A stretch of DNA of 64,000 nucleotides from positions 1,187 through 65,186 of IMG/VR virus record IMGVR_UViG_3300015251_000001. One strand, 5' to 3'. The notes under the pieces are model-generated. The model saw only the letters and a program-made list of their open reading frames with translations, had not been told where the DNA came from and did not search any database. This stretch comes from a virus. This document shows, one piece after another, positions 877 to 57,977 of this stretch. Position 1 is the stretch's first letter. Each line of letters begins with the position of its first letter. The position numbers were made by a program, and so were the translations under genes.

Positions 877-1344
877 ATGGAAACATCTACCAAGCCGGTG
901 CTTACTGGACGAGGCGGTCCGGGAAGAGGGCAGGGACGTAAGCCGGGATCAGTAAATAAGCTGCAACGTGAAGCGAGGGAAGCAGCTAAGCAGGAGGGGG
1001 AATTGCCGCACGAGATCTTGCTCCGTATGGCCCGTGGGATGCCAGTCAGGATCATGGAGGATAGTGGCTCGGTAGATCAGGAAGGTAATCGGATCTTCCG
1101 TGAAGTCTACAAGGCGCTTGATGTTGAGCAAGTGAAGGATGCAGCAAAGGCCGCAGCACCCTACTTTGCTCCGAGGCTATCCACAGTAGAAACCATTGCG
1201 GGGCTTACCGATGACCAGCTTGACGAGATCATTAAATGCGCTTCCGCCGAAGCAGAGGATGGCGCTTGCGATGATGGAGAAGGCGAGGAGGAGCCGGTTA
1301 AGGAAGCAGCAGGCACTCGCCGAAGAATCCGATTCGAGGCCTGA
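877..1344 (+). CDS. terS: Terminase small subunit
   Basis: N-terminal [14 protein letters not shown] motif, [12 protein letters not shown] motif, directly upstream of terL. Confidence 0.8.
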
Positions 1345-2671
1345 GTTTGACCCGGAGCACAACGAGCGCAGCCTAGTCCTGAATCGGGCACATAAGCTTT
1401 CGGATCTCTACTACAAGAAAGCCCGCTATAAGGTCTACTGGGGCGGCCGGGGATCGGCTAAGAGCTGGGCTTTCGCCGAGGCTCTGATACGGCTGACTGC
1501 CTCGCATGCACTGCGCGTGCTTTGCGTGCGTGAATTCCAAGCATCCATCAAGGACAGCAGCCACAAGATCCTGAAGGACACGATTACCCGGCTGGGCATG
1601 GATAGCTGGTTCCACGTCACGAAGGAAGGCATTACTAGCCGGGCTGGTGCGGAATTCATCTTCAAAGGGCTGCACGGGAACGAGCAAGGCTTCCGCTCCA
1701 CAGAAGGGATCGACATTGTCTGGGCTGAAGAAGCCGCAGCAATCAGTGAATCCTCGTGGCGCTCCCTGATTCCTACGATCCGTAAGCCAGGATCAGAGAT
1801 CTGGGTCAGCTTCAACCTGGTCGACGAGGACGATGCCACTTACCGGCGCTGCGTGCATCCTGGCCCAGGCGGCCACGTGGACAGCGAGCTGCTTCGCCAG
1901 AGCGGCTACGAGTCCTGGGTCGTCTGCCACAAGATCAACTACGACGAGAATCCCTACTTCCCTGTGAATCTGCGCATGGAGATGGAAGGGGACCGGGAAC
2001 GGGACTATCCGCTTTACGAGCACATCTGGTTGGGGATGCCGCTGAAGATCAGCAATGCGGTCATCTTCTCGAAGAATGCCATCGTGCGCGAGTTCCCCGA
2101 TGATCTGTGGGAGAAGGCTGACCGGCTGATGTTTGGGGCCGATCACGGCTTTGCGCAGGATCCGGCTACGTTGAATCGCTTCTTCATCTTGGAAAAGCAT
2201 CAGTGGCCTGGGGAGGAAGTGCCACGCCGGCGCCTCTTCATCGAGTACGAGGCGCATGGTGTAGGCGTGGAGCTAGATGAGCTGCCTGAGTTCTACGACT
2301 CGATTCCAGGCGCACGTAATTGGCCAATCAAGGCCGACTGCGCCCGGCCGGAAACCAACAGCTACCTTGCCCGCAAGGGCTTTGCTATTAGCGGCGCCGA
2401 GAAGTGGGACGGGTCGGTGAAGGATGGCATCACGCACCTGAAGGGCTTCCACCAGATCGTTATCCATCCGCGTTGCGTGAAGACGGCCGAGGAGGCCAGG
2501 CTCTACCGCTATAAGACGGACAAGCTCCAGCTCGATGCCTATGGGCAGCCGCTGGTATTGCCGGTCATCATCGACAAGCACAACCACCATTGGGATGCAA
2601 TCCGCTATGGTTTGGATGGCTACATCCAGCGGAGCGGGGCCATCGGCATGTGGGAGCGGCTGGGCAGGTAG
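1271..2671 (+). CDS. terL: Terminase large subunit (PBSX-like)
   Basis: Walker A GGRGSAKS, Walker B IVWAEEA, nuclease-domain [10 protein letters not shown] and [11 protein letters not shown] is open from 1196; start chosen behind GAGG (1259 is an alternative). Confidence 0.95.
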
Positions 2672-2673
2672 CG

Positions 2674-2681
2674 GTATAGAT
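2674..2681 (+). promoter_or_regulatory. GTATAGAT putative phage promoter motif
   Basis: Intergenic, 26 nt before ATG 2708; one of seven copies found. Confidence 0.55.
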
Positions 2682-2707
2682 AGGGTTTCACAACCTGGAG
2701 AAAAATC

Positions 2708-2971
2708 ATGAGCAGGATCTACAAGTGGCGCGATTCGTTGGGCCCGGTAGCCGGGCCCGTGCTGACCAAGGCGGAACTGGAGCGCAAACTGGCGTGGGAG
2801 GAAATGTTGACCAATCTGCCCTCAGCCAAGGAACTGACGGATCTGGGCAGGCACATGGCGGAACGTCTCGACCTGTTGGCTGGCAGGCGCAAGAAGTGCA
2901 CATCAGCCACGCGCTCCAATGATGATTGGGAGCCCGCAAATCGTGGGCAGGGGAGCAACAATGCCGACTGA
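2708..2971 (+). CDS. Hypothetical protein
   Basis: Strong RBS (ACCTGGAG); overlaps the endolysin start. Confidence 0.6.
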   Translation: MSRIYKWRDSLGPVAGPVLTKAELERKLAWEEMLTNLPSAKELTDLGRHMAERLDLLAGRRKKCTSATRSNDDWEPANRGQGSNNAD

Positions 2972-3425
2972 CATCCCGTCCGTGGTGGAAGGGGTGGCGG
3001 AACTCTGCCGCCGCTTCGAAGGCCTACGCCTTCGGCCCTATTACTGCCCGGCTGGCGTGGCGACCATCGGCTACGGAGCCACGTCCTATCTGGATGGCAA
3101 GAAGGTCCAACTAAAGGATCCAGCCATTTCCGTGGCTACGGCAGAAGACATGCTGATCCAGCAGATCATCCGGGTCTATCTCCCCGGGGTGCAACGGCAC
3201 TGCCCAGGGTTGCCGGATGAGGCTCAGATAGCCACGACTGACTTTGCCTTCAACCTCGGCCTCAACGCGCTTGGTCAATCAACGCTTAAGAGGCGCCTTA
3301 ACTCGGGGGATTGGCGGCGTGCAGCTGAGGAGATCAACAAGTGGGTCTATGGTGGGGGTAAGGTTCTGCCGGGGCTTGTGTTGCGCCGGCAGGCGGAAGC
3401 CACGCTTCTGCTCAGTCTGCTCTAG
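2961..3425 (+). CDS. Endolysin, GH24 phage lysozyme
   Basis: FEGLRLRPYYCPAGVATIGYG (E-x8-C-x5-T triad), FAFNLG, KWVYGGGKVLPGLVLRR. Confidence 0.92.
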   Translation: MPTDIPSVVEGVAELCRRFEGLRLRPYYCPAGVATIGYGATSYLDGKKVQLKDPAISVATAEDMLIQQIIRVYLPGVQRHCPGLPDEAQIATTDFAFNLGLNALGQSTLKRRLNSGDWRRAAEEINKWVYGGGKVLPGLVLRRQAEATLLLSLL

Positions 3426-3432
3426 GGCCAGC

Positions 3433-3864
3433 ATGGCATCCGCCAAGGCCCTTAGCAAGGCCCAGGAACGCGAATCGCTCTACCAGCGCTATGGGGGCCG
3501 CTGCTCCTATTGCGGGGAGCGCCTGGGCAAGAAATGGCAGGCGGATCACGTGCAGCCACTTGGCCGGCAGGGGCAGTGGGTCAGGGTCGGTCGACGGACC
3601 AAGTGGGTGGCGACCGGTGGCATGGATCATCCCGAGCGGGATTGCTTCGAGAATCTGACCCCAGCCTGCCACCTGTGCAACATCAACAAAGGCAATCACT
3701 CGCTGGAGAACTGGAGGGCTCAGCTTCAGCGCTCCGCCGGCGTGCTGACCCGGGCCTATTCCACGTACCGCCACGCAAAGCGCTTTGGCCTCGTGCTGGA
3801 AGCGCCACCAAAGGTTCGGTTCTTCTTCGAGTATCCCCGCCGAAGAATTTTCAACATCATCTAA
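3433..3864 (+). CDS. HNH endonuclease
   Basis: RCSYCG...ADHVQP...NLTPACHLCNINKG. Confidence 0.9.
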   Translation: MASAKALSKAQERESLYQRYGGRCSYCGERLGKKWQADHVQPLGRQGQWVRVGRRTKWVATGGMDHPERDCFENLTPACHLCNINKGNHSLENWRAQLQRSAGVLTRAYSTYRHAKRFGLVLEAPPKVRFFFEYPRRRIFNII

Positions 3865-4729: not shown

Positions 4730-5098
4730 GGAGGGATCATGGCTCGTCACATTCACGTTCATGTTCACGACGGCAGCTTCAACGAGTCCGACCACCCGAG
4801 GGCTGAAAACGGTAAGTTTGGCTCCGGTGGTGGATCGGCCGGGGGAAGCCGGAAAGGGGAAGCCGGAAAGGGAGCTGGTAAACCCTCCAGCACCATGGGG
4901 GCCTACATGGCGGGTTCCCATATTCACCTCCGCTACTCTGGCAAGGCAGATATGGAGAAACTCAAGGAAGCTGGCATCAAGCCAAATGGCGAGGCCGGCC
5001 ACATCACTATTACGCCGGAGCAGCTCAAGAAATTGGGCCTAACCGCTAGAGAGAATTAAGATCTAGCCTGGAGGGATCATGGCTCGTCACATTCACGT
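4730..5098 (+). repeat. 29-bp exact direct repeat of RBS plus first codons (4730-4758, 5070-5098)
   Basis: ggagggatcatggctcgtcacattcacgt occurs twice. Confidence 0.95.
4739..5059 (+). CDS. Small putative internal head (cargo) protein
   Basis: Starts MARHIHVHVHD; contains FNESDHPRAENGKFGSGGG; strong RBS GGAGGG. Confidence 0.65.
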   Translation: MARHIHVHVHDGSFNESDHPRAENGKFGSGGGSAGGSRKGEAGKGAGKPSSTMGAYMAGSHIHLRYSGKADMEKLKEAGIKPNGEAGHITITPEQLKKLGLTAREN

Positions 5099-6482: not shown

Positions 6483-6503
6483 CCGTTCCCAAGGAAAAGG
6501 AGA

Positions 6504-6779
6504 ATGAAGATGGAAACGCTATTGGTTGATGACGGCTTGGAACAATCTGATTGGACCAAGCAGTCGTGGGATCTTCCGCCGTACAAGTCGAAGGCGTTTA
6601 ACGGAATCGTGCCGAACCTGGAAGCATTCAAGCATCTGCCGGTCTACCTTCAGGCCGTGAAGGCGGGACTCATCAAGAACGATGAGTGGGCCGGCCCCAC
6701 CGAGGCCCCTGGGGTTCAGGGCAGGGACCAAAAGCAGCGCGGGAAGCACATCCATATTCACCTGGGCAAGGCCAAATGA
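6504..6779 (+). CDS. Small hypothetical protein with C-terminal HIHIH motif
   Basis: RBS AGGAG; WDLPPYKS...LPVY..AV..GLIKNDEW core; ATGA-coupled to the portal gene. Confidence 0.65.
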   Translation: MKMETLLVDDGLEQSDWTKQSWDLPPYKSKAFNGIVPNLEAFKHLPVYLQAVKAGLIKNDEWAGPTEAPGVQGRDQKQRGKHIHIHLGKAK

Positions 6780-8368
6780 AAACCTCGATCAAGGCATCCG
6801 TAAGGGATGCACAGAAGGCGGACACCTCGTTGCGGGCATCCCTGAAAGCAGGACCAGGGAGGAAAGCCTTTCTCCCGTGGGAAGGTGCGGCAGTCAAAGG
6901 GGTCACGCAAGACTCCTTTGTCAATTTCATGCAGCGCATGGGCATGGGTGCCGACAATGCCGTGAGCACCAGTAGCTACGGCTTCAACCCCATCACGCGC
7001 AACCGCATCATGCTGGAGTGGATTCATCGTGGGAGCTGGTTGGGTGGCGTGGCTGTGGACATCGTCGCCAACGACATGACCCGGGCCGGCATCGACTACA
7101 CCACGGAGCTTCAGCCCGACGAGCAGGAGAAGATCGACCACTGCGTTGCTCGCCACGCCGTGTGGCAGTCGATCAACGAGACCATCAAGTGGGGTCGGCT
7201 TTACGGGGGCTGCATTGGGGTGCTGCTGATTGATGGGCAGGACATGCGCACGCCGCTGCGCTTGGATACCATTGGCCAGGACCAGTTCAAGGGGCTCCTG
7301 GCGCTTGACCGCTGGATGGTGGAGCCCACGCTGGAAGACCTCGTGACGGAGTTTGGCCCCCACCTTGGCTTGCCAAAGTACTACCGGGTTCAGACGAACG
7401 CGCCGGCCCTGCGCGGGCAGGCAATTCACCATTCCCGCGTGGCTATCCGTCATGAAGGGATCAAGCTGCCATACAACCAGCGCATGACGGAGAACCTGTG
7501 GGGGATCTCCGTGCTTGAGAGGCTCTATGACAGGATGGTGGCTTTCGACAGCGCCAGTACGGGAGCAGCCCAGCTCGTCTACAAGAGCTATCTGCGCACG
7601 CTGAAGATCAAGGGCCTGCGTGAAATCATTGCCGGCAATGAGAAGGCGATGGTAGGGGTCATGCAGCAAGTCGAGATGATGCGCCGCTTCCAGTCGATCG
7701 AGGGCATCACGCTCCTGGACGGGGAAGACGAATTCGAGATCCAGGGGCATTCAGCATTCAGCGGGCTATCCGATGCCCTGACCCAGTTTGGACAGCAGCT
7801 TTCCGGTGCCTTGCAGATTCCGCTCGCCAGGCTTTTCGGTCAATCCCCGGCCGGCTTCAGCACGGGCGATACGGACATGCAGATGTACTACGACAGCATC
7901 AAGCAGGAGCAAATGGCTACCTGCCATCATGGCGCGACCATGATTTACAAGGCAGCCGCTGCAAGCGAAGGGATCCAGCTCCCGGACAATTTTGCTGTTG
8001 GGTTCCGCAGCCTGTGGGACACCGATGATTCGGAGAAGGCAACCATTGCCAAGACCAACGGGGAAGCCATCGCAGCCGCTCACGAGGCCGGGCTGATTGG
8101 CCGGCAGACGGCGCTGAGGGAATTGCGCCAATCCTCGCGCGTGACCGGGATCTTCACCAACATCACGGAGGAAATGATCGCCTCCGCGGATGATGAGGTG
8201 CAGCCCCCCATGAGTGAAATGATGCCCCCTGGTGCCGAAGGCCTGGGGATGCCTGGCGCGCCAGGCGCCGTAGAAAAGGGAGCCGAGAATGCCGCTGGAC
8301 CGCAAGGGGAAAAGAAGCCGGTGGGAGACAGCAAAAGGCGTCGAGTCCCGCTACAGCTCCCAGCTTAG
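6776..8368 (+). CDS. Portal protein (DUF1073-like)
   Basis: WIHRGSWLGGVAVDIVANDMTRAG, WGRLYGG, WGISVLE, IPLARLFGQSPAGF.TG..D..MYYD motifs; position after terminase. Confidence 0.88.
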   Translation: MKTSIKASVRDAQKADTSLRASLKAGPGRKAFLPWEGAAVKGVTQDSFVNFMQRMGMGADNAVSTSSYGFNPITRNRIMLEWIHRGSWLGGVAVDIVANDMTRAGIDYTTELQPDEQEKIDHCVARHAVWQSINETIKWGRLYGGCIGVLLIDGQDMRTPLRLDTIGQDQFKGLLALDRWMVEPTLEDLVTEFGPHLGLPKYYRVQTNAPALRGQAIHHSRVAIRHEGIKLPYNQRMTENLWGISVLERLYDRMVAFDSASTGAAQLVYKSYLRTLKIKGLREIIAGNEKAMVGVMQQVEMMRRFQSIEGITLLDGEDEFEIQGHSAFSGLSDALTQFGQQLSGALQIPLARLFGQSPAGFSTGDTDMQMYYDSIKQEQMATCHHGATMIYKAAAASEGIQLPDNFAVGFRSLWDTDDSEKATIAKTNGEAIAAAHEAGLIGRQTALRELRQSSRVTGIFTNITEEMIASADDEVQPPMSEMMPPGAEGLGMPGAPGAVEKGAENAAGPQGEKKPVGDSKRRRVPLQLPA

Positions 8369-11752: not shown

Positions 11753-13288
11753 ATGTCAATTCGCAGGTTTCTCAAACGCTTCACGCATGACCGTAGCCGG
11801 GAGCCCCCGGAGCTGCAACAGATCCTCACCGTGGAGCAGATCGGCCCCCGACGGAGTTTGACCCCCGAGGGCTTTTTGCTCTGCGAGGCGGTCCCGATTG
11901 CCAGGGTCGGCGTGATGGTCTACGGGCCCGGCGAGGTGCCCATTGAGGTGGGCCCCGATGGGGTGGCCTATGTGACCCGCACGGCTGATGAGCTCTTCCG
12001 GGCTGAATGCCTGGCCAGCTTCGTTGGCAAGCCGGTTGTCGATGAGCACCCCCCGGACGACGTGAATCCCAAGAACTGGGCCAAGCTGGCCAAAGGGGTC
12101 GCTTTCAACCTCCGCCACGGCGAGGGCGAGGATGCGGATGTAATCCTCGCCGACTTGCTGATCACTGATGCACAGATGATCCTGGACATCAATGCCATGA
12201 AGCGGGAAGTATCGGCCGGCTACGAGGCGGATTACGAACAAACAGGGGAAGGACAAGGAGTCCAGACCAACATCATTGGAAATCACATCGCGCTGGTCGA
12301 GAGGGGTCGCTGTGGCCCGCGCTGTGCAATCGGCGACCGTTCTCACTCTACTACATCAAGGAAATCTCAAATGGCAGTGCAAACTCAGAAGGGCCGGCCG
12401 AGCGCCACCCAACCCCAACGGCGCAAGATCGCGCAAGCCACCCTCGACGCTCTGATGGAGCAGCTCGCGGAGCCGGATGCTTCCACCATGGATGACGGCG
12501 AGCTCAGCGGCCCGGCTGACAGCCATACCCACATCCACATCCACGGCATCGGCAGCACGGCTCCGGCCGGCACCACCGGCGTCCAGGATGAAGAAGTGGC
12601 CGGTGCTGCCGAAGTCAAGAGCCCAGCGGGGGACCCCAACGTCGAAGCCCGCTTCGTCTCGTTGGAAAACGGGCAAAAGGAAATCATTGCCCAACTTGCT
12701 GCTCTGACCAAGGCCATCAGCGGGGAGGGTGGCGCTGGCGGCGAGGACCCCAGTGGTGACCCGGAAGGTGAAGCTGATCCCGAGATGGCCAAGGACGAAA
12801 ATCCCTTTGCCAAGAAGGACGACAAGGACGACGACAAGGAAGAGAAGAAGGACCCCAAGGCCAAGACCAACGACAGCGCCGCGCTGGAGACCTCGTACAA
12901 GGGGACCCTGGCCGGCTGCGAAGTGCTGGTGCCAGGCTTCCGGGTGCCAACCTTCGACGCCAAGGCCAAGCGTTCCACCACCATCGATGCGATGTGCAAT
13001 GCCCGCCGTAAGGCCCTGGACGCCTTCAATGCGACCACCGAGGGCCAGCAGATCATCGAGTCCGTTTCGGGGGTCAAAACTGTCGACACGATCGCTTTGG
13101 GCTGCACGCAAGTGGCAACCCTCTTCCAAGCCGCAGTTGGCGCCAAGAAGCTGCTCAACAACGGCAATGCCACGCGCGATGCCAACCGAATGGGTGCCCC
13201 TCAGTTGCCTGGCGCTGCGAAGAAGGGGCCGACGAGCTTGGCCGACCTGAACAAGACCTATCGGGAGTTCTACGCCGCCAAGCATTGA
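11753..13288 (+). CDS. Prohead protease/scaffold (DUF2213-like)
   Basis: TPEGFLLC..VPIARVG, VDEHP, KREVSAGYEADY, NHIALVERGRCG, then an acidic disordered scaffold region. Confidence 0.88.
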   Translation: MSIRRFLKRFTHDRSREPPELQQILTVEQIGPRRSLTPEGFLLCEAVPIARVGVMVYGPGEVPIEVGPDGVAYVTRTADELFRAECLASFVGKPVVDEHPPDDVNPKNWAKLAKGVAFNLRHGEGEDADVILADLLITDAQMILDINAMKREVSAGYEADYEQTGEGQGVQTNIIGNHIALVERGRCGPRCAIGDRSHSTTSRKSQMAVQTQKGRPSATQPQRRKIAQATLDALMEQLAEPDASTMDDGELSGPADSHTHIHIHGIGSTAPAGTTGVQDEEVAGAAEVKSPAGDPNVEARFVSLENGQKEIIAQLAALTKAISGEGGAGGEDPSGDPEGEADPEMAKDENPFAKKDDKDDDKEEKKDPKAKTNDSAALETSYKGTLAGCEVLVPGFRVPTFDAKAKRSTTIDAMCNARRKALDAFNATTEGQQIIESVSGVKTVDTIALGCTQVATLFQAAVGAKKLLNNGNATRDANRMGAPQLPGAAKKGPTSLADLNKTYREFYAAKH

Positions 13289-33541: not shown

Positions 33542-34539
33542 TTTTCAACAATCTCCAAGCCCAGGTCAAGAACCTCGCCCCACAGCTCCTGTGAGGCTGC
33601 GAAGCGCAGCACGGCATCCGATGGGGTGGAGGACCTGGAGCGCTGTTTGTCAAGGGTCAGACTGGCCGTCGAGCGGGCACTAACCAGCTTTACCCCATGA
33701 AGCTGCGCCCCCTGATCCCGAACCCACGCCACTGCCTCCCGTCGGATTCGGTTCCACTGGTGCGCATCGGATTCTTCGAGCTCGATGGTCAGCTTGACCT
33801 GATCCTCCTTGCCAAGATCGTAGCGCTTCAGGGCTGCCAGTGATCCCACCTTGATCGTCCTGCGGCTGATCGTTTCGAAGTGAAGGTCATAGGCCTTGCG
33901 CTTCTTATCGATCACCAGGCACCGGGGCTTGAAATTATCCCCGAAGTGGACGTGATATGGGCTTCCCACGTATTCAATCTTCCCGATCACCTGTGGGACG
34001 TGGATGTCCCCGGAGTAGACCTTGCCGGCATTTAAATCTGGCATCTCATCCCCGTCCATCTTCTGCCCATTGCTTGCCACTGATCCGGGTGCCGTCTGGT
34101 GCATGAACAGAAAGTCGAAGTGGCTGAAATCCCGATCCTTCCAGTCCCGCGCCGGGTTCTTGGTGTAGGGAAGGAACATGCAGGCCGGATCCGACTCCGG
34201 CCCCAATATCTCGGTCGGCTCCGTGATGACCCGAATCCTGGACCCTTGGATGCATTGCAAGAATTTGAAGAACACGCCCCCCTGCTTCAACCAGTCGTGA
34301 TTGCCTGCGAGGATGATGACTTGCTCGACTGGCACGCCAACGATCGCAGCCGTGAGCCGATTGACCAGCTCCGCGGGGTGGTAGTCCTTGGCATCCGTAA
34401 GGTCCCCAAGGATCAGTAACGTTTTGGCCCCCTCCTCCCTAATCTCGTGGGTGAGCCACGGCCATAAGCCCCAGCGGTACTCGTCGTTGGGGCTCGCCGT
34501 GAAGTGGGGGTCACTGATGATGATGGCGGGGAGTTTCAT
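33538..34539 (-). CDS. sbcD: SbcD/Mre11/gp47-like nuclease
   Basis: SDPH, GDLTD, GNHD, H, GDIH metallophosphoesterase motifs. Confidence 0.93.
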   Translation of the reverse strand: MKLPAIIISDPHFTASPNDEYRWGLWPWLTHEIREEGAKTLLILGDLTDAKDYHPAELVNRLTAAIVGVPVEQVIILAGNHDWLKQGGVFFKFLQCIQGSRIRVITEPTEILGPESDPACMFLPYTKNPARDWKDRDFSHFDFLFMHQTAPGSVASNGQKMDGDEMPDLNAGKVYSGDIHVPQVIGKIEYVGSPYHVHFGDNFKPRCLVIDKKRKAYDLHFETISRRTIKVGSLAALKRYDLGKEDQVKLTIELEESDAHQWNRIRREAVAWVRDQGAQLHGVKLVSARSTASLTLDKQRSRSSTPSDAVLRFAASQELWGEVLDLGLEIVEK

Positions 34540-35066
34540 GGCATTCTGATCCTTACTCGTTTGCGCATGTCCGGCGCTTTGGGGCCATCCCAGATCGTGC
34601 CTTTTGCCTGTGGGCTCATCACGTCCAGGGCGTAGTGGAGGATGGCCAGGGCATCGGCCTCGTTGTCGTCTTTCAGGTCCCAGAATCCCTTGCGGCGCAT
34701 GGCATCAATCATCAGTTCCTTGCCGGCATTGCCCTTGCCGGTAGCGTGCTTCTTGATGGTTGCCACCGGCACGCCCTGATACGGGATCTTCTCCACCTCG
34801 CACCACGACGTTAAGCTGGCCAGGAATCCCCCGTAGACATGCGCGGCAGTGGTCCCGGCGTGCCGGCGCACCTCCTCGAACATCACCAGGTCCATCCCAC
34901 CAGTCTGCCCATTGAGCTGGTCCAGCCAGTGTTTGAATTTCAGGTAGCGCATGCCGCCACCACCGAAACGGTCCTGTCCGAACTCGTTCATACCGCTTGT
35001 GATGTGTCCACCGGCTGAAGTAGCCCAACCGGTCTTTGAGCCGAGATCAAGTGCGAGGATTTTCAT
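34536..35066 (-). CDS. ruvC: RuvC-like Holliday junction resolvase
   Basis: ILALDLG..TGWA, FEEV, ATGKGNA.K, DNEADA. Confidence 0.88.
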   Translation of the reverse strand: MKILALDLGSKTGWATSAGGHITSGMNEFGQDRFGGGGMRYLKFKHWLDQLNGQTGGMDLVMFEEVRRHAGTTAAHVYGGFLASLTSWCEVEKIPYQGVPVATIKKHATGKGNAGKELMIDAMRRKGFWDLKDDNEADALAILHYALDVMSPQAKGTIWDGPKAPDMRKRVRIRMP

Positions 35067-36161: not shown

Positions 36162-37223
36162 TCACCCGCCGTACTTCCGACTCTGCGGAAGAAAGTCGGT
36201 TTCGATCTTGGCCCACTCCTGGCGGACCAGCTTGCGCAGGGCCTCGCGCATGTCTTTGGCTTCTTGCCCCCCTTTGTTGCGAATGTTCGTGATGCGGACC
36301 TTGTATCCGTTCTTCGAGAAGCCCAGCTCCTTCATTTGCTCATCCCGCTTCACCTCGAACGCCCATTCGGCCATGGCCAGGAGGTCGTCCACCCCATAGC
36401 CATACAGCACCGAGTAGTCCGCCTTGCGAAACGGAAGCCCGATCTTGTTTTTCTTCACGAAGGCTTGCACCTCCACGCCGACGATGCGCTCCACCTCCCC
36501 GATCTTCCGCTTGATCTTGGACTTCTCGGCAAGCCACATGATGTGGGTGGCGTAGTAGTCGAGGGCCTTGCCCCCGGAGCGGGTCTTGGTTTCGCCGAAA
36601 GTCACGCCGAGCTTGTCACGGAGCTGACTGATGACCATGAGGTGCACCCGCTGCTCCTCGATCCGTTCAACCAGCATACGGAAGAGCTTGCCAATGGCCT
36701 TGGGCTTGGTGCCGCCGAAGCTGCCCTCGTCGAACTCGCGATCCATTTCCGCCTCATCGCTCAGGGCGTCAAGGCTATCGATGATGTAGAGCCCAGGTTT
36801 CCCCTTCCAGGCCTCCAAGCAGCGGAGCAGATCGGTGTATAGGTCTTCGACCGTCCGCATCGGGTTCTTGCCGTTGAACTCGATGCGCTCCACCGGCGCC
36901 CCCATGGCCTGGGCGTACTTGACGTCGAAAGCGGATTCGGATTCCGCGTAGCGAATCATGCCGTCCGGGTAGGTCAATGCGAAATTGGCGCAGCTTTCCA
37001 TTGCAAGCAGCGTTTTCCCGGCGCTCTTGTCCCCGACAACATTGCTGACCCGGCCCAGCACCCAGCCCCCGCCTAGTGCCTCATCAATTAGGCCGCAGCC
37101 AGTGCTGAAAAACTCCATGTCCTTGTCGGCTCCGCTCGCAAAGTAAGAAGGGGCCGGGGCCCCTTCCACCTGGATACGTCGCCGACCATTGCCCTCTTCA
37201 GGCTGAATGGTCTTGCGGGTCAT
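36162..37223 (-). CDS. recA: RecA/UvsX-like recombinase
   Basis: Walker A GDKSAGKT, IIDSLDAL, ISQLRDK, GGKALDYYA, KNKIG.PFR. Confidence 0.93.
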   Translation of the reverse strand: MTRKTIQPEEGNGRRRIQVEGAPAPSYFASGADKDMEFFSTGCGLIDEALGGGWVLGRVSNVVGDKSAGKTLLAMESCANFALTYPDGMIRYAESESAFDVKYAQAMGAPVERIEFNGKNPMRTVEDLYTDLLRCLEAWKGKPGLYIIDSLDALSDEAEMDREFDEGSFGGTKPKAIGKLFRMLVERIEEQRVHLMVISQLRDKLGVTFGETKTRSGGKALDYYATHIMWLAEKSKIKRKIGEVERIVGVEVQAFVKKNKIGLPFRKADYSVLYGYGVDDLLAMAEWAFEVKRDEQMKELGFSKNGYKVRITNIRNKGGQEAKDMREALRKLVRQEWAKIETDFLPQSRKYGG

Positions 37224-37224
37224 A

Positions 37225-38634
37225 TCAACGGTTCCTTTCTTCACGCATGCGGCGCAGCTTAGACGCTGCTTCTTTCTCCCCATCTTCAGGCTCCGCCATC
37301 CGGCGCCTGCCCGTGCTTGTTGCCGGCGCCTTCTTGAGCTTCAGCTCCTCGCAGATCCAATCCGCCAGATCCGCCTGACCATCGGCCTTGCCCGGATTCA
37401 CATCCTGCAAGGTATCTTCGCTTTCGCAAAGGGATTCCAGCTCCTCCAGGGTCATATCGTGGATGGATTCCCACGAATGCACTGGCTCATCGCGATGGCC
37501 GCGCGAACCACTTTCTCGATCGTCTCCGCGAGCGCGAGAGTTTCGGCCAGGTGCCTCGTCGTCTTCACGGGCAGGGTCACGACCGCCACGACCCCGTCCA
37601 CGGTCAGAGTCATCATCCCGGGGGGACCCCCCATCACGAGCGCTTCCCCTTGGGGGGTCCCGATCCTTATCGTCGTCCCGCCCGCGAGCACGGCTTTCGC
37701 GATTGCCAGCCTCCCGGCCTGGCTCTTCCCGCTCCGATTCACGGCCGCGGTGAGACCCACCCCCGCCAAAAGCCTTGGCGATGTGGTCATAGTCGAAGTA
37801 GACGAGCTGATCCGGGAGGGGATTGTCGACGGCCCAGTCGATCCATTTGTTGGATCCAAGAGGCGAGCTACGGCGGGCGATTTTGACTGCTTCATATTTG
37901 GTGTTCCGATCCTTGCCTGTTTTCTCGAATTCAACATCGTAGCCATCCTCCGGGTCATCGATGTTCAGCGTTTCACCGGTGCGCTTGTCGACGGCCAGCT
38001 TGTTCAAGTCGGCATCGATGGTCCATGGCATGGCCCAGAACTGTACGCCTTCTTTTTCGTTGTCCCGATCGATCAGATAGACCCCACAGCGGCGCTTCGA
38101 CTCGATTTCCTTGGCGTACTTCTCATCGCCTTCGCGCAGCGCCTCTGCATGTTCCTCGCTGATCGGATCCGGCTTGTCCAGCATTTTGTGCAGGTCGAGG
38201 TAGCTCCCCCGGTCCGGCCCCACGCCGTAGTGCACGTAGAGGTCAAAGCCGTAGTGTTCCGGCTTCGGCCACGTGGCCGGGAGGATGCGAATCGAATTCA
38301 TCCCGTCGGCCGGCTTCCAGTTCTTGATCCCGTCCTTGATGAGCCGGTCGAACTCCTTGCCCCTCATCGAGGCACGTTTGTCGATCTGTTCGCGGGATCT
38401 GGCGGCGTAGGAGAAAGACGGCCGCGCGCCACGATCATCTCGATCACGGCCACGCGAGTCATCCGACCCCCGATCACGGCCGCGATCGTCGCTGCGAGAA
38501 TCCCCGCGATCGCGGCTAGGGCGATCGCCCCGATCACTCCCACGATCGCGGCTAGGGCGATCGTCATCACCCCGGGCGCGGGTGCTTGGCCGTTCCTCAT
38601 CACGATCCCGACCCCGGCTGCGTTCTCTGTCCAT
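37225..38634 (-). CDS. gp32-like single-stranded DNA-binding protein with Arg/Asp-rich tails
   Basis: Core GMNSIRILP...VHYG...DPI...GYDVEFEKTG...Y; long RD/RS/RG low-complexity ends. Confidence 0.7.
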   Translation of the reverse strand: MDRERSRGRDRDEERPSTRARGDDDRPSRDRGSDRGDRPSRDRGDSRSDDRGRDRGSDDSRGRDRDDRGARPSFSYAARSREQIDKRASMRGKEFDRLIKDGIKNWKPADGMNSIRILPATWPKPEHYGFDLYVHYGVGPDRGSYLDLHKMLDKPDPISEEHAEALREGDEKYAKEIESKRRCGVYLIDRDNEKEGVQFWAMPWTIDADLNKLAVDKRTGETLNIDDPEDGYDVEFEKTGKDRNTKYEAVKIARRSSPLGSNKWIDWAVDNPLPDQLVYFDYDHIAKAFGGGGSHRGRESEREEPGREAGNRESRARGRDDDKDRDPPRGSARDGGSPRDDDSDRGRGRGGRDPAREDDEAPGRNSRARGDDRESGSRGHRDEPVHSWESIHDMTLEELESLCESEDTLQDVNPGKADGQADLADWICEELKLKKAPATSTGRRRMAEPEDGEKEAASKLRRMREERNR

Positions 38635-38746
38635 ATCGTTTGTCCTCGTACTGTTGCTTCGCTCTGAACCAGGCCGCGAAGATAAGCCGTGAAAGCACAT
38701 AGACCCCCAGGAGGGAGCCAACAGAGTAAATCAGGAATTCCATCAT
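38600..38746 (-). CDS. Small membrane protein (48 aa)
   Basis: MMEFLIYSVGSLLGVYVLSRLIFAAW hydrophobic helix; RBS-like AAGGG. Confidence 0.35.
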   Translation of the reverse strand: MMEFLIYSVGSLLGVYVLSRLIFAAWFRAKQQYEDKRYGQRTQPGSGS

Positions 38747-38750: not shown

Positions 38751-39257
38751 TCACCCTTCGCTGATTCGACGACGGGTTGATTCCCCGGATGTGATCGAAC
38801 GGGTATAGGGCCGCCTTTCCTGAAGGGCGGATACCTCGCTCCTGCGCTGATCCACCTTGCTGCTGTGGCTGTCCTTGGTGTAGTACTGGCCGAGATAGAG
38901 GTCACAAAGGCTACTGATCGAGAACCCCCGGGCCTTCCAGGCCGCGTAAAGCCCTTGCCACTGCGCAAGCTCCTTGCCCAACAGGTTCACCCGTTCGAAG
39001 GCCCTGGCGCGTTCCTGGTGCCTTCTGACGGCACTGTCGGCAGCCTTGTCGGTCATCTTCTCATCGTCGTCCTTGAACTGCCGATAGAGCCTGGCCTCCA
39101 CTACCTTGAGCTCCTGTTCCGCTTCGGCGGCCCGTGCGCCCACGGCCGCCATCCGATCAGAAATGCGACCCATGACTTCAGCCTGGATTTCCAGCTCCTC
39201 ATCGAGCTGGTGCTTGTTCACCCGCAACATTGCACGGAAGGTGTCCAGTTCAGCCAT
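38751..39257 (-). CDS. uvsY: UvsY-like recombination mediator
   Basis: Helical; L.VNKHQLDEEL..Q...MTDKAADSAV...AWKARGFSISSL; clustered with recA and SSB. Confidence 0.65.
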   Translation of the reverse strand: MAELDTFRAMLRVNKHQLDEELEIQAEVMGRISDRMAAVGARAAEAEQELKVVEARLYRQFKDDDEKMTDKAADSAVRRHQERARAFERVNLLGKELAQWQGLYAAWKARGFSISSLCDLYLGQYYTKDSHSSKVDQRRSEVSALQERRPYTRSITSGESTRRRISEG

Positions 39258-39314: not shown

Positions 39315-40301
39315 CTAGCGGCCCAGAACGAATTCTCCGAAGGCCAGCAGGATTGGAGCCATTTTGTCCGCTGGGTTGCAGGGCCTGGTGAAGGCATGCA
39401 GCATGTCCAGCAGCCTGACTGCCGCCCCATCGCTTCGCGCCCCCATGATGCATGCATTCAGATAGTTCACTACCACGATGCGGATGGACTCGGCATTGGT
39501 ATCCCCGAGTGCCTTAAGCCCATTGGTGACGTCATCCCACCTCATGTTGCCCTTGACCAGCATGCGGCAGAGGTCAATGATCTCCTTGTTGTCCAGCGGC
39601 GTCTCCAGGATCCTGGCGCACTCCTCGGGATCCTGGACATCGTAGACCATGTTCAGCATTACCAGCGCCCGGCGCGGAGATCCGCCACAGGCCAGACCAA
39701 CTTGTTTCAGGATGGCATCCGGAGTCTTGTAGTCCTCCTTGTCGCAGACCATCTCAAGGAGATCCATGATGCCGTCGAAACGGACCGGCTTCAGTAGATA
39801 GCTGTTGCAGCGCGTGGCGATGGTCTCGGGGATCTTGCCGGATTCCGTGGTGCAGAAGAAATAGTAAACGTGCTCCGGGGGCTCCTCAACGGCCTTGAGC
39901 AGGGATTGCCATGCTTGCTTGGAGAGGCTGTGGCACTCGTCGATGATGAAGGCCTTGTTGGGCTCCGCGCCGAAGCCGTGGTACCGGGCACTGGCCGTGA
40001 CCTCCTTCATCGCATCAATGCCGCTGTTGGAGGCGGCATCAACCTCGATGATTGAACCGGGGCCGCAATTGAAACCCTTGGCCAGAATCCGAGCGATTGT
40101 GGTTTTGCCGGTCCCCGAGGGGCCCGTGAGGATGAAGCAGTGGGGTCTCGTGCTGGCTGCAATGGCTTTGCGGATGGACCGGACCACCTCGTCCTGGCCA
40201 AGCACGTCGTTCAGGTGCTGGGGGCGGTACTTCAATTGCAGAGGCTGCTCCATGGGCGGTGCCGGGGCTTCCACTGCTTCAATCTTTCGTCTGGTGCTCA
40301 T
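39315..40301 (-). CDS. dnaX: DNA polymerase III gamma/tau-like clamp loader
   Basis: LKYRPQ..DVLGQ, GPSGTGKT, EVDAASN.GID, IIDECH, EEPP, TRC. Confidence 0.92.
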   Translation of the reverse strand: MSTRRKIEAVEAPAPPMEQPLQLKYRPQHLNDVLGQDEVVRSIRKAIAASTRPHCFILTGPSGTGKTTIARILAKGFNCGPGSIIEVDAASNSGIDAMKEVTASARYHGFGAEPNKAFIIDECHSLSKQAWQSLLKAVEEPPEHVYYFFCTTESGKIPETIATRCNSYLLKPVRFDGIMDLLEMVCDKEDYKTPDAILKQVGLACGGSPRRALVMLNMVYDVQDPEECARILETPLDNKEIIDLCRMLVKGNMRWDDVTNGLKALGDTNAESIRIVVVNYLNACIMGARSDGAAVRLLDMLHAFTRPCNPADKMAPILLAFGEFVLGR

Positions 40302-47061: not shown

Positions 47062-47982
47062 CTACTTCAGCTTGCCCGCCTTCTTCAGCAGATCGATCAT
47101 CTTGTGCGCTTCGGCGTAGTTCATGTTCAGAGTGTTGTCCTGAAACTTCAGATCCTCTTTCTTCAGGATTTTGCCGATGTCCTCAACCGTGCGGGTCAGG
47201 TCTTCAATGATCAGCTCGCGGATACGAGTGCCCACCGACACCGGGCCGTTGCTGGCGCGGGTGCGCTTGCCGTCTTCGGCAGGCGCTTCCTTCTTGACTT
47301 CCTCGGTCTTGTCGGCGCTGCGGCGGCCGGCACCACTGGTTTCTGCCTTGCGCTTGCCTTCGACCTTGATGGATTCCACGCGATCCCGGGCAAATTCCTC
47401 CTCGGCCCCGTCGATCTTCAGGACGATCAGCTCGCCGTCCATCTCCACCAGCTCGCCGGTGATGACCTTGCCACGCTTGGTGGTGACCGTGACGGTATCG
47501 CCCACGACCGGATCCTTGGGGCCTTCTTCGGCCGGATCAGAGCCCCCGGCAAGGGGTTCCACCTTCTCGACGCGGTCCATGGCCAGCTCCTCCTCGTCCC
47601 CGGCCGGTGTCTTCAGGACGATCAGGTCCTTGTCGAGTTCCACGATCTTGCCCGTGACGACCTTGCCACGCTTGGTGGTGACCTTGACGTCGTCCTTGAC
47701 CTTGGGCTCGTAGGCCTTGGCGGGGGCTTCGGCTGACACGCGGCGCCGGCCGGTGGCGGCAGGCGGATCCATGTCCGGGAATTCCGGGAGCGACTTCTTG
47801 GCCGTGGCGGCATCGGCGCTGTCGTTCATCCAGTCTTGGGCTTCCTTGCTGAGCCCGTCCCAGACCTTCTCGGGAACCTTGTTGACGGCCATGGCCAGCC
47901 GCAACAGGAAGGTTTGCCGATCCTCGTCCTTCTTGGGATCGACTTCGGCGGCGTCGCACAGTTCCTTTTGGATCTTGCTCAT
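47062..47982 (-). CDS. Hypothetical protein with two tandem Sm/SH3-like beta-barrel repeats
   Basis: V.VTTKRGKV.TG..VE.D..LIVLK...EEE...DRVE.. twice; 25-bp exact DNA repeat at 47464-47488 and 47659-47683. Confidence 0.7.
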   Translation of the reverse strand: MSKIQKELCDAAEVDPKKDEDRQTFLLRLAMAVNKVPEKVWDGLSKEAQDWMNDSADAATAKKSLPEFPDMDPPAATGRRRVSAEAPAKAYEPKVKDDVKVTTKRGKVVTGKIVELDKDLIVLKTPAGDEEELAMDRVEKVEPLAGGSDPAEEGPKDPVVGDTVTVTTKRGKVITGELVEMDGELIVLKIDGAEEEFARDRVESIKVEGKRKAETSGAGRRSADKTEEVKKEAPAEDGKRTRASNGPVSVGTRIRELIIEDLTRTVEDIGKILKKEDLKFQDNTLNMNYAEAHKMIDLLKKAGKLK

Positions 47983-48045: not shown

Positions 48046-48053
48046 AGCTATAC
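48046..48053 (-). promoter_or_regulatory. GTATAGCT putative phage promoter motif
   Basis: Overlaps the stop of the sigma-like gene; upstream of the 47982 start. Confidence 0.45.
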
Positions 48054-49072: not shown

Positions 49073-49418
49073 TGATGAATCTCCGTCGAGTGGTTTTGGT
49101 TTCAGATCCCATGGCCGCGCCTTGGGAAGCCGGCTGGGAGGGCGATTCTAGACGGATCAGGCGCCGGTGGGTCTTCGTTGGCGCAGCACCGGTGAAGGTG
49201 CCATTGCGCACAGCTTCCAGGATGGCAGACAGATCCGTCCCGGCCACGGTGGTGTTGGATGGGGCGACCCAGGCATCTACCCCGTCACAGATTCCCACCA
49301 CGCTATGGTCCCCCGGGACCATGAAGATCTTCACATCTCGTTTCCGATGCGGATCGTGGTACCCGGCGAGATGCAGGCACCCCTGGAAATGACTCTCAAA
49401 CAGATGGTTGTATTTCAT
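49065..49418 (-). CDS. Hypothetical protein
   Basis: RBS AGGAG before MKYNH; ATGA-coupled to primase. Confidence 0.55.
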   Translation of the reverse strand: MKYNHLFESHFQGCLHLAGYHDPHRKRDVKIFMVPGDHSVVGICDGVDAWVAPSNTTVAGTDLSAILEAVRNGTFTGAAPTKTHRRLIRLESPSQPASQGAAMGSETKTTRRRFISV

Positions 49419-53720: not shown

Positions 53721-54196
53721 GCGATTCGCCGACGGATTTCGTGCTCCACGTCGGCCAGGGTCGCAGACTCGAGCTTTTCTGCAATGCCCACCACGTGATG
53801 AAGCAGCCACGGCGAGAGATAGCCAGTTTCCACACCGCTTGCATTGATCAGGAACACGGGCTTACGGCGCACTACGGCCGCATAGAAAATTTCCATGGAG
53901 GTCCCCACGGATGGCCGATCGTAGTAGGCCAGCACCCCATCACTCAGATTGATGTCAGACAGGTCCTCTTCCACCACGCCCGCGGCTTGCTCCGGCCTCC
54001 AGAAGAGGTTTCGGTAGTCACGGTCCATGGGATCACGACACTCGCCTGGCCAATTCTGCTTGACCCAGTCTCTCCAATCCCGGCATTCAGAGTCCGATCT
54101 ATCTTGGATCGGGCCACAGAGGTAGATCGTCAGCGGCCTGAGCTGCTGTTGAATGGTCGGGGCATGGCCAGCCAAGTCGAATGGGATCGTGTTCAT
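53717..54196 (-). CDS. Nucleoside 2-deoxyribosyltransferase / nucleotide N-glycosidase family protein
   Basis: IYLCGPI...WR...DP...DLSDI..SDGVL....SVGTSMEIFYA. Confidence 0.82.
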   Translation of the reverse strand: MNTIPFDLAGHAPTIQQQLRPLTIYLCGPIQDRSDSECRDWRDWVKQNWPGECRDPMDRDYRNLFWRPEQAAGVVEEDLSDINLSDGVLAYYDRPSVGTSMEIFYAAVVRRKPVFLINASGVETGYLSPWLLHHVVGIAEKLESATLADVEHEIRRRIA

Positions 54197-56310: not shown

Positions 56311-56344
56311 GATCCGTGCTCCTAGGGTTGATGAATCGCGCTTG

Positions 56345-56352
56345 ATCTATAC
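56345..56352 (-). promoter_or_regulatory. GTATAGAT putative promoter for the leftward (queE) operon
   Basis: In the divergent intergenic region, 34 nt before the queE ATG. Confidence 0.6.
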
Positions 56353-56359
56353 CAGGCCT

Positions 56360-56389
56360 TTACCAGGTTCAGCGTCATCACTGTATAAT
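56360..56389 (+). promoter_or_regulatory. Sigma70-like rightward promoter TTACCA-N18-TATAAT
   Basis: Consensus -10; the same -35 hexamer recurs at 57997 and 59455. Confidence 0.6.
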
Positions 56390-56427
56390 CGTAGCGTTCT
56401 ACATCAACCCAAGGAGCATCCGACATC

Positions 56428-56751
56428 ATGGCAACCCGCACCCCGAACCTGAGCATCAAGCAAGTCATGACCCTCGCAGGGGTCTCCCACATGGCCCTCT
56501 ACCACTGGCGCGCAGGATCCACAAAGCGCGAGGCCCTGCCGACTGTGGCCGGCGAGGGCCCCCGTTCCGTGGCCTTCCAGCCCCGCGTGTTGAAGGCCTG
56601 GGCAAAGAAGCATGGGGTCACGTTGAAGCAAGATCCCGTGGCCGTGGCGCTGGGCGAGGTCGAGCTGGAGTCCCCCAAACAGGCCACGAAGAAGTCTGCC
56701 AAGCCGGCCACGAAAACGGCACGTAAAGCAAAAAGTCGCACCAGCCACTGA
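56428..56751 (+). CDS. AlpA/Xis-like winged-helix DNA-binding protein with Lys/Ala-rich tail
   Basis: LSIKQVMTLAGVSHMALYHWR; tail KQATKKSAKPATKTARKAK. Confidence 0.7.
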   Translation: MATRTPNLSIKQVMTLAGVSHMALYHWRAGSTKREALPTVAGEGPRSVAFQPRVLKAWAKKHGVTLKQDPVAVALGEVELESPKQATKKSAKPATKTARKAKSRTSH

Positions 56752-56782
56752 GGCTAACGTAAGGCCACGAGCCGAGAAAGGA

Positions 56783-57526
56783 TTGATCATGGGAACCCCT
56801 CGTAAACGCATCACTGGGCTACGTAATCCGGGCTACGTAGGGGTGTCGAGGGATTCCCTGTCAGTCCCGGAAACAGCGAAAAATAAGCAAAAAGTCTCCG
56901 TGCAAAATCCCACCACCCCCCACCCCCCCTACGAAGTAGGGGTGGGGGTGGGGGCCTGCATGCGGCCGGGCGGGGGCGTGGATGCCCATGCGCCTATGCG
57001 CGAAGGCGCGGACGCCCATGCATGCGCGAACGAGGTCGAGTCTATCCTCGAACAAACGAAAACGCTTACGTCCAAGCAACGTCAGGAATTACTAGACCAG
57101 TTAAGCCTCGCAAACCAGATGACCCGGCGTGCGGGGGATGACCGGGACCTGGACATGTGGGCTGGTGCGATTTATAACGCCCTTACGAGCTGCGTTCCCG
57201 CCTCGGATGGGTCTGGATTCGGCCAGCTCCTTGTGAAGCGCGCACTAGCCCCTACGCAGAATTGGCGTCCCATCCAGAATTTTATGCAGGATTCGAAGCT
57301 CTGTGAATTGCGGGTGGTGGAACGGGCCTCCGTTTACCACATGCTGGCGGAGCTCCTCGTCCAACATGCGCAGCACGTAGCCGACCGGTCTGGTGCGCCG
57401 CTGGGCCCGAAGCTCGTGGGATCTTGTGCCCACGGTATTGCCGGGGTTTTTGACAAAGCCTTCCCCGGCTACCTTCGCGCTGGCCTGGCGAAGATTGCTG
57501 CCCGGCAGCTCGTGCGCGGAGCCTGA
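56783..57526 (+). CDS. Hypothetical protein with a G/C-skewed low-complexity N-terminal region
   Basis: RBS AAGGA; helical C-terminus ending FDKAFPGYLRAGL. Confidence 0.55.
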   Translation: MIMGTPRKRITGLRNPGYVGVSRDSLSVPETAKNKQKVSVQNPTTPHPPYEVGVGVGACMRPGGGVDAHAPMREGADAHACANEVESILEQTKTLTSKQRQELLDQLSLANQMTRRAGDDRDLDMWAGAIYNALTSCVPASDGSGFGQLLVKRALAPTQNWRPIQNFMQDSKLCELRVVERASVYHMLAELLVQHAQHVADRSGAPLGPKLVGSCAHGIAGVFDKAFPGYLRAGLAKIAARQLVRGA

Positions 57527-57528
57527 TC

Positions 57529-57783
57529 ATGCTGTTTGTTGGCGGGCCCCTGCATGGGCATTTAGTGCCGGAGGGCGCGCAGGGCTTTCTCGTAAGGGGC
57601 GAGGTAGTGCTCCGGGTGGTGGTGCTTGACCGTGACGATGCCGGCCACCTGGTGCAGACCGCCAGGGCCTACCTGCGGATTCCCTATTGGAGGATGGGGA
57701 AGCCCTTGCTCTACTTCTTCGGGCTGGTGGGGATGGATCAGGACGAGCTGATTGCCCAGGCAAGAAAGCTCATTGGGCCATGA
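57529..57783 (+). CDS. Hypothetical protein
   Basis: FVGGPLHG start; operon spacing. Confidence 0.55.
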   Translation: MLFVGGPLHGHLVPEGAQGFLVRGEVVLRVVVLDRDDAGHLVQTARAYLRIPYWRMGKPLLYFFGLVGMDQDELIAQARKLIGP

Positions 57784-57977
57784 CCCGGCGTATCCGCCTT
57801 CGTCTGCCAGTCGTTGGGCTGCACCGGCGCACGTGCACGAGGGTTCTTGCCCAGCCCTGGCCCTTCTTGTATTCCGTGGTGGGCGGGGAGCTGATCAAGA
57901 ACCTTCCCCCGGTGCCTTCAGTTGCCAAGAAATCCCGGAAAACGCGTCGTCGTGTGAGGATGCCCACGACCGGCTGA
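57780..57977 (+). CDS. Small Arg-rich hypothetical protein
   Basis: ATGA overlap; MTRRIRLRL...KTRRRVRMP. Confidence 0.45.
   Translation: MTRRIRLRLPVVGLHRRTCTRVLAQPWPFLYSVVGGELIKNLPPVPSVAKKSRKTRRRVRMPTTG

Follow-up and report, generated by a model that had tools for sequence, protein, structure and literature searches.

Why do so many unrelated proteins of one phage carry the same few residues at or near their ends? The 64,000-nucleotide stretch of viral DNA analysed here (the window; bases 1187-65186 of the 66,340-bp IMG/VR record IMGVR_UViG_3300015251_000001) raises this question through a short peptide of three basic residues followed by a hydrophobic one, RRR[IV] in its simplest form, which an initial annotation had noticed on packaging, recombination and replication proteins alike. 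We find that the peptide is a real, lineage-specific short linear motif under selection at the protein level, with the approximate form [ST]-x-R-R-[RK]-[IVFM]-x(0-2)-[DE], and that 12 or more proteins, all of them working on phage DNA, carry it on a flexible terminus or linker. Its most probable role, at a probability of roughly 0.42, would be that of a common tether to a platform of replicating DNA, namely the phage DNA and/or the acidic, Arg/Asp-rich protein that binds single-stranded DNA (SSB); we infer both this partner and an accompanying effect on localisation.

All 14 peptides listed in the initial annotation were found in the sequence, at the genes to which it had assigned them, and its count of eight RRR[IV] was reproduced. 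The statistics given here are based on our own calls of about 90 genes, made with a codon-usage model trained on long open reading frames (ORFs), and on shuffles within each protein. In the proteome of the window RRR[IV] occurs 7 times against 0.68 expected; for the last 12 residues alone the count is 5 and the expectation 0.05, and neither count was reached in any of 1000 shuffles. For the whole genome, the broader pattern RRR[IVFM] is present in 10 copies (1.2 expected), with 7 copies in the last 12 residues (0.09 expected). Under a harsher null, in which the last 20 residues alone were shuffled so that the composition of the tails was kept, the expectation is 0.16 and 0 of 5000 shuffles reached 7. 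The enrichment over an Arg-matched, shuffled proteome thus holds. In addition, 10 of the 13 RRR triplets have I, V, F or M as their next residue, for which the background is 0.177 (binomial p = 5e-6), and seven copies lie 7 residues or fewer from the C-terminus. N-terminal enrichment by itself is not significant in this genome (1 copy vs 0.2 expected), and the N-terminal copies are supported by their conservation in orthologues and not by the enrichment count.

Such a pattern could in principle arise at the level of nucleotides or composition, through Shine-Dalgarno sites read as Arg codons, GANTC sites (xGA followed by NTC), CGN repeats or mis-called ORFs. Some features of the copies agree with this. 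In the family of ORF 49065-49418, the Arg codons of the motif overlap the Shine-Dalgarno site of the next gene (GGAG/AGGAG), CGN repeats read RRR on the opposite strand too, and 12 of the 37 Arg codons in the motif (32%, vs 10.7% genome-wide) are the rare CGA or AGA, so that GANTC is found in five C-terminal copies. However, six of the seven strict C-terminal copies (RR[RK] plus aliphatic, leaving out the variant of RuvC) are not at the position of a downstream Shine-Dalgarno site, and this overlap was rejected as a general cause, as it holds for the 49065 family only. GANTC is common but mildly depleted in this DNA (223 sites vs 288 +/- 14 expected), and the preference for CGA and AGA at the motif is not kept in orthologues while the amino acids are; the GANTC hypothesis was rejected on these two grounds. 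In non-coding frames, the four-residue pattern is mostly RRRL or comes from CGN repeats read in antisense. From copy to copy the Arg codons vary, and between orthologues they change synonymously: the portal reads AGG CGT CGA here and AGG CGC AGA in the related contig L006, the HNH endonuclease CGC CGA AGA vs CGG CGC CGG, and the UvsY-like family CGT CGT CGA, CGT CGC CGA, CGT AGA AGG or CGT CGG AGG. From this synonymous turnover we conclude that selection acts on the peptide, and neither Shine-Dalgarno overlap nor GANTC explains the motif. An artefact of this kind is already largely refuted and scarcely credible.

The source record, which has direct terminal repeats and a G+C content of about 59%, showed no close cultured relative when its portal region was compared with GenBank phages by megablast. 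Its nearest cultured phage is Edwardsiella phage vB_EpM_ZHS (ZHS), which is syntenic and has a PolA with 52% identity, while Vibrio phage MAR10 has the replication module in common with it (PolA identity 35%). Related contigs were retrieved with the clamp loader and the portal, and three complete and one partial relative were compared. Orthologues were found to keep the peptide down to about 30-40% identity, as would be expected of a selected signal. In the relatives G001, G002 and G004, C-terminal RR[RK][IVFLM] counts 3 copies against 0.1-0.2 expected. Orthologous tails stay basic-aliphatic despite diverged flanks in the portal, the putative small terminase (terS), the HNH endonuclease, RuvC, the UvsY-like protein, the 49065 family and the 57780 ORF. 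In ZHS, which is also high in GC, the strict motif is not enriched, and its tails are Arg-rich but of another form. GC content alone therefore does not create the pattern, and ZHS, with its differing tails, would be a poor experimental stand-in. The recombination proteins of ZHS and MAR10 retain clusters of Arg while the aliphatic residue is largely lost (ends RARRRED, SRRRRSR and TSRRRRR). The style of the motif hence follows lineage, with RRR-aliphatic here, RRRRED in ZHS and SRRRR in MAR10.

The carriers are the ORF at the terS position, the HNH endonuclease, portal, RuvC, RecA, SSB, the UvsY-like protein, the clamp loader, the SH3/Sm-like protein 47062, a deoxyribosyltransferase and two small ORFs without assigned function (Table 1). 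RRR or RRK is present in 12 carriers, in 9 of them within 40 residues of a terminus. Terminal copies occur on 11 of 61 packaging, replication or early proteins and on none of the 32 proteins of head, tail or lysis (Fisher p = 0.014).

Table 1 Gene blocks of the window, the SSB gene and the copies of the motif (tail peptides are written up to the stop codon; positions are those of the window).
Feature	Position	Strand	Basis or remark
Packaging, head, tail and lysis block	0.9-30.6 kb	+	Pfam/PHROG
Replication, recombination and nucleotide block	30.6-56.3 kb	-	Pfam/PHROG
Early block	third block of window	+	Pfam/PHROG
gp32-like SSB	37225..38634	-	PHROG 1192; PF08804 on homologues; Foldseek to T4/RB69 gp32, E ~1e-6
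RRRM in disordered C-terminal linker of SSB (STGRRRMAEPEDGE)	37297..37308	-	homologues; AlphaFold2
RRRI in tail TRRRISEG of 168-residue coiled-coil 'UvsY-like' protein (38751-39257)	38763..38774	-	homologue alignment
RRKI at N-terminus MSTRRKIE of clamp loader (39315-40301)	40281..40292	-	conserved in orthologues
RRRI in N-terminal extension of RecA (MTRKTIQPEEGNGRRRIQVE)	37173..37184	-	orthologues
Variant RKRVRIRMP at C-terminus of RuvC-like resolvase (34536-35066)	34539..34565	-	orthologue tails
RRRV in linker TGRRRVSAEAP of protein 47062-47982 (tandem SH3/Sm-like domains)	47737..47748	-	orthologues
RRRF in tail TRRRFISV of ORF 49065-49418 (no assigned function)	49077..49088	-	orthologue tails
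RRRI in tail IRRRIA of nucleoside 2-deoxyribosyltransferase-like protein (53717-54196)	53723..53734	-	sequence
RRRI in C-terminal tail of ORF 877-1344 (putative terS)	1318..1329	+	orthologue tails TSRRIRFPS, RSRVRIRIGT
RRRI in tail PRRRIFNII of HNH endonuclease (3433-3864)	3838..3849	+	orthologue tails PRRRILNIT, QRRRIINP
RRRV in tail KRRRVPLQLPA of portal (6776-8368)	8336..8347	+	clade orthologue tails
RRRV in tail TRRRVRMPTTG of small ORF 57780-57977	57945..57956	+	orthologue in G004
Weak internal copy QRRKIAQATLD in DUF2213 protease/scaffold (11753-13288)	12419..12430	+	orthologue ARRKLSQATID; membership uncertain
Weak N-terminal copy MGTPRKRITG of ORF 56789-57526	56798..56812	+	orthologues conserve poorly; membership uncertain

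Among the replication and recombination copies, that of the 168-residue protein has R162-R164 almost unchanged in 30 homologues, in contrast to the 25 residues before them, which vary. RRR is in the last 12 residues of 21 of its 26 database homologues, RR[RK] plus aliphatic in 19 of 26, and the usual ending is TRRR[IV]xE(G); 19 of 23 members have I/V at +3, and 17 of the 23 have E at +5. The label 'UvsY-like' that this protein had received, and which is kept here for convenience, finds no backing: it has no Pfam match, its PHROG matches are all of unknown function, and a profile search of the PDB gave coiled-coil TRIM25 as sole match (E = 0.02) and no similarity to UvsY. In the clamp loader alignment M1, R4, R5, K6 and I7 are invariant (MxTRRKI). 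RecA (36162-37223 if it begins at the ATG used by orthologues, an internal ATG from which GRRRI is numbered as residues 13-17) has orthologues with TRRRVQLE, SRVRVAVE or TRVRVVIE (RxRVxVE) and an additional motif MATRK at the extreme N-terminus. In protein 47062, R79 and R80 are invariant in 5 orthologues; a search of the ESM Atlas for its function gave no usable match. RuvC orthologues end in RKRVRLRAG, VRRRVVLLDQ, SSSRRRLL, PRRERIHLL or SRRKRRVTKK. Members of the 49065 family end in ARRRITNV, PRRRVNVHA, IRRRNVLQA or PRRSRVQLV, and in the window ORF 49065-49418 has a second, weaker copy, HRRLIRLE, upstream. ORF 57780-57977, a moderately secure gene call, also begins with MTRRIRLRL, and its orthologue in G004 (59% identity) ends in KTGRRVAIVINN.

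The ORF of the putative terS was so named by position alone, as it has no family match. Portal orthologues of the clade carry RRRVTV in the tail or end in GRRVRIQQ, PRRKLI, RRRALVPE or VRKKIDDAG, while just 1 of 35 more distant unfused portal representatives (41-61% identity) has an RRR-type tail, and the portal tail is therefore clade-specific. The tail of the deoxyribosyltransferase is absent from the orthologues of G001, G002 and ZHS, from which it follows that it was gained in this lineage and is specific to this genome. Judged from these tails, portal, terS, HNH and deoxyribosyltransferase appear to have gained the peptide in this clade. Among the 150 best representatives of portal homologues, 115 have 580-1780 residues and consist of a portal fused to long C-terminal extensions; unlike these, the phage studied here has a separate MuF-like gene (8289-9020) that overlaps the portal gene. 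The DnaB-like helicase (52218-53720, minus strand) ends in GTRRTARK, an Arg cluster without the aliphatic residue, and its orthologues end in GRRRRREEDDDEE or SRRRRREAEDEGKD; the helicase may belong to the set as an additional, diverged member.

Protein-level conservation, retention in orthologues, absence from distant portals and restriction to DNA-handling proteins together support the core claim of the initial annotation, that unrelated proteins bear a shared short linear signal under selection. Alternatively, the carriers could have no partner in common and the tails could do separate local jobs (terS with DNA or the large terminase, portal with packaged DNA, RecA with itself, SSB in its own regulation), their likeness being a common and cheap solution in a GC-rich, Arg-rich lineage. 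Basic terminal tails are indeed common on DNA-binding proteins, for example the RKR of the phi29 connector or the tail of the P22 small terminase, the motif is short, and its form drifts in relatives. Yet a stereotyped S/T-RRR-I/V-acidic form on at least 10 families, at about 80 times the expected C-terminal count in one genome, is more than this would predict, as are the I, V, F or M after RRR in most cases and the lack of the strict form in GC-rich ZHS. Separate local jobs are therefore improbable. A shared function is indicated since the form is stereotyped in one genome, kept by selection and gained by unrelated proteins in the clade.

The preferred reading of that function is a tether. 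The arginine triplet would bind a polyanion that all carrier proteins meet: the DNA, the gp32-like SSB with its acidic blocks and its acidic C-terminal domain, or both. The aliphatic neighbour would add some specificity. Most carriers are presumably oligomers, to judge from the families they belong to, and avidity would therefore come into play. As an outcome, proteins of packaging, recombination, replication and base modification would be concentrated on the same DNA. The variants that are tolerated (RVRIR, RKRVRIR, RRKL, RKKI, and the MAR10 ends SRRRRSR and TSRRRRR) fit a loose, electrostatic recognition.

Among the proteins, the SSB is a candidate receptor or platform. Along its chain follow Arg/Asp-rich disordered regions, one of which forms the N-terminus, the core with gp32 fold, an acidic three-helix domain, the motif, an acidic run and a terminal helix, RLRRMREER. 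Of the 159 residues in the two disordered regions, 45 are Arg and 48 Asp/Glu. The acidic domain (W.S.H.M..ELE.L...DLADWICEE) is conserved and confidently modelled, with a predicted local distance difference test score (pLDDT) of about 95 in the context of the full-length protein only. A PDB sequence search with the SSB returned nothing useful. The family counts 307 homologues, and the contigs that bear the best ones reach about 76 kb. Of the 119 homologues examined, 105 have RR in the linker that comes after the conserved acidic domain, in an overall pattern [ST][ST]RR[R][VI] with an acidic run behind it; 65 of these 105 have S/T at -2, and 57 have V/I at +3. R443 is invariant or nearly so while its flanks vary, and in some homologues a unit P-[AT]-RRR-[VA]-x-DDD is repeated two or three times. 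Between the genes of the UvsY-like protein and the SSB lies that of a 48-residue single-pass membrane protein (38600-38746, minus strand); the same arrangement recurs in L004, L005, L012, ZHS and Vibrio phage MAR10 (gp074), and this protein is thus a conserved member of the recombination cluster.

Several observations weigh against a platform tether. In AlphaFold2 models of the C-terminal 93 residues and of the full-length SSB, the segment with the motif (residues 439-450; the copy TGRRRM begins 27 residues from the protein end) has a pLDDT below 50 and is undocked, and a visible docking in cis on the acidic domain or the core was dropped for this reason. The Arg/Asp-rich SSB, which the initial annotation had proposed as a hub, stays a reasonable candidate, mainly by analogy with T4 gp32; the modelling did not place its own copy on its folded parts. 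A predicted complex of SSB residues 72-441, residues 85-306 of protein 47062 and the tail 125-168 of the UvsY-like protein scored 0.25, below the mark of 0.32, and counts neither for nor against the tether. Several tails, that of terS among them, are preceded by strongly acidic linkers. RRR alone binds DNA weakly, with a Kd > 1 uM even at 2 mM NaCl (PMC4797294). The conserved S/T at -2, I/V at +3 and subsequent acidic residue are not needed by pure electrostatics, and these non-basic positions therefore indicate a more specific recognition. Finally, the clade-specific tail of the portal fits a lineage-specific partner at least as well as DNA.

These last points lead to the reading that ranks second, in which the peptide docks stereospecifically on one folded receptor, either of the phage (SH3/Sm-like 47062, the large terminase, the clamp or an unannotated protein) or of the host. 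As in the PIP-box, beta-clamp motifs and the D-motifs of mitogen-activated protein kinases, a basic cluster and a hydrophobic residue would sit on an acidic patch beside a hydrophobic groove. The conserved S/T, aliphatic and acidic positions in the SSB and UvsY-like families agree with such docking, as do the strictly terminal or linker location on many enzymes, the lineage-specific gains on portal, terS, HNH and deoxyribosyltransferase, and a motif style that varies by lineage as a co-evolving phage receptor would yield. On the other hand, large changes of spacing (RVRIR) are tolerated, the hydrophobic residue is lost in distant relatives, and no such receptor was found in this analysis. A folded receptor is thus possible but less likely than the tether, and the other readings are less likely again. 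The clamp was down-weighted as receptor, since DpdA and PolA resemble proteins with clamp motifs of their own at their termini, both conserved (RQQGLL and MGFLYNE), and the clamp thus probably has a ligand motif of its own. Orthologues of DpdA (44532-45476, minus strand) end in RQQGLL, KQQGLL, RRGALL or RKQSLW, and those of PolA (40298-42925, minus strand) begin with M[GS]F[FLI][YF]NE and end in PNPY; these conserved ends resemble the classical motifs by which proteins bind sliding clamps, and deazaguanine insertion would thereby be coupled to the clamp. The protein of 48048-48605 (minus strand), with 185 residues, adjoins the highly codon-biased protein 47062 and is conserved in all relatives. 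It was rejected as a hub, as its alignment has blocks like regions 2 and 4 of extracytoplasmic function (ECF)-type sigma factors (DxxMQEAY..FLR...FMALFK; EAPxEV..L..FL).

The peptide could further be a tag for a ClpX-type AAA+ unfoldase, for the remodelling or timed turnover of DNA-bound complexes, and the initial annotation had likened it to the degron of MuA. IRRRIA, TRRRISEG and MSTRRKIE do resemble ClpX C-motif 2 and N-motif 1, and the extreme C-terminal position of C-motif 2 is that of the seven strict copies and the RuvC variant. It is not that of the copies in SSB, 47062, RecA and the clamp loader: equally conserved copies lie 23-30 residues from the C-terminus of the SSB, in the linker of 47062 and 13-35 residues into RecA. 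Moreover, ClpX is highly conserved among hosts, although the form of the motif differs between this clade, ZHS and MAR10, and it would take a special rationale for a phage to destabilise a dozen of its essential proteins. A degron would hence account for the extreme C-terminal copies only and is very improbable. A twin-arginine translocation (Tat) signal (S/T-R-R-x-F-L-K and h-region) does not match, as most copies are C-terminal and no hydrophobic stretch follows them; like a kinase site, it was considered and not retained. A target for Arg-ADP-ribosylation was rejected, since the ADP-ribosyltransferase-like gene of the window (5079-6482) has no orthologue in relatives that keep the motif. 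In the same region (4739-6779, plus strand), three genes with MARHIHVH or HIHIH leaders, including one of 467 residues, are without orthologues in G001, G002, G004, L006 and ZHS; this cassette is therefore genome-specific, in contrast to the family-wide RRR peptide.

Hub networks in which short linear motifs bring many DNA enzymes to a common platform are well known for sliding clamps and bacterial SSB tails. We know of no stereotyped motif on the partner side that links packaging, recombination, replication and DNA-modification proteins of a phage, and literature searches gave no description of such a network in phages. The observation is solid and its mechanism directly testable. Perhaps the peptide is a portable address tag by which the SSB or another single receptor gathers these four groups of proteins into one DNA factory. 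New proteins would then join simply by acquiring it, as a bacterial-virus counterpart of PIP-box or nuclear localisation signal-type networks; this rather doubtful reading would, if one receptor is true, give a direct handle on the organisation of the DNA factory in a medium-sized phage and a sequence rule to predict its dark proteins, such as ORFs 49065 and 57780. As the SSB family is large, the rule would apply to many uncultivated phages.

The gene content of the minus-strand block gives the setting in which known systems can be compared. It includes SbcCD, RuvC, RecA, the SSB, the clamp loader, a beta-clamp-like protein, FEN, PolA fused to a UDG-like domain, SNF2 and DnaB-like helicases, DpdA, FolE, QueC, a radical-SAM (QueE-like) protein and the deoxyribosyltransferase-like protein. 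Motifs that bind sliding clamps (bacterial QL[SD]LF, PIP-box and APIM; PMC6881253) follow the same logic as the phage motif, in that one short peptide stands at the extreme N- or C-terminus of many DNA enzymes, often with basic flanks. Unlike them, the phage motif is also carried by SSB, portal and terS, and no copy has the Gln or the Leu-Phe pattern of the consensus QL[SD]LF or Qxx[LM]x[FL]. ClpX signals such as the C-terminal RRKKAI of MuA or the N-terminal signal of lambda O are likewise basic-aliphatic terminal peptides on DNA-transaction proteins of phages and transposons, but the phage motif has conserved internal copies and a lineage-specific form. SPKK or S(T)PXX, a minor-groove DNA-binding motif of S/T-P-basic-basic that is usually in tandem, has in common with it an S/T at -2, any residue (sometimes Pro, as in TPRRK, SPRRR and KPRRR) and at least two basic residues; the phage motif seldom has Pro at -1, continues with an aliphatic and an acidic residue, and is mostly present as a single copy.

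In T4, to our knowledge, no stereotyped motif on the partner side is known. T4 gp32 uses its C-terminal region to recruit UvsX, UvsY, gp59 and Dda (PMC11551737), and its cooperativity is mediated by LAST, a basic Ser/Thr motif (PMC11551737 and its references 50-52). It has its fold in common with the SSB of the window, and the carriers overlap with its classical partners (recombinase, mediator-position protein and clamp loader), but packaging proteins carry the phage motif as well. T4 gp32 also lacks the polyampholyte disordered regions, the acidic three-helix domain and the terminal RLRRMREER helix. In composition LAST equals the phage motif, with three basic residues and two Ser/Thr, but order and position differ: in the phage motif the S/T comes first, and it sits on the partners and on the C-terminal linker of the SSB and not on the SSB N-terminus.

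The peptide pVIc of adenovirus, GVQSLKRRRCF, slides on DNA with KRRR as its functional core; RRR alone slides as well, and variants in spacing are tolerated (PMC4797294, PMC4740752). Like the phage motif it is a viral terminal peptide in which a KRRR or RRR core precedes hydrophobic residues, and a contiguous basic core in a short terminal peptide is found in both; pVIc tethers its cargo to viral DNA, so that DNA-bound partners meet. In contrast, the phage motif usually has three basic residues, a conserved S/T before and an acidic residue after them, is carried by a dozen proteins of a bacterial virus with no known release by cleavage, and is only proposed to bind DNA. As pVIc slides on DNA, and its tolerance of spacing matches the variants RVRIR and RKRVRIR, a direct tether to DNA has a viral precedent. 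By this analogy, direct tethering, which was not among the candidates of the initial annotation, seems at least as likely as those, and if a DNA tether only is true, the phage motif would be the first phage-wide example of the adenovirus 'molecular sled' principle.

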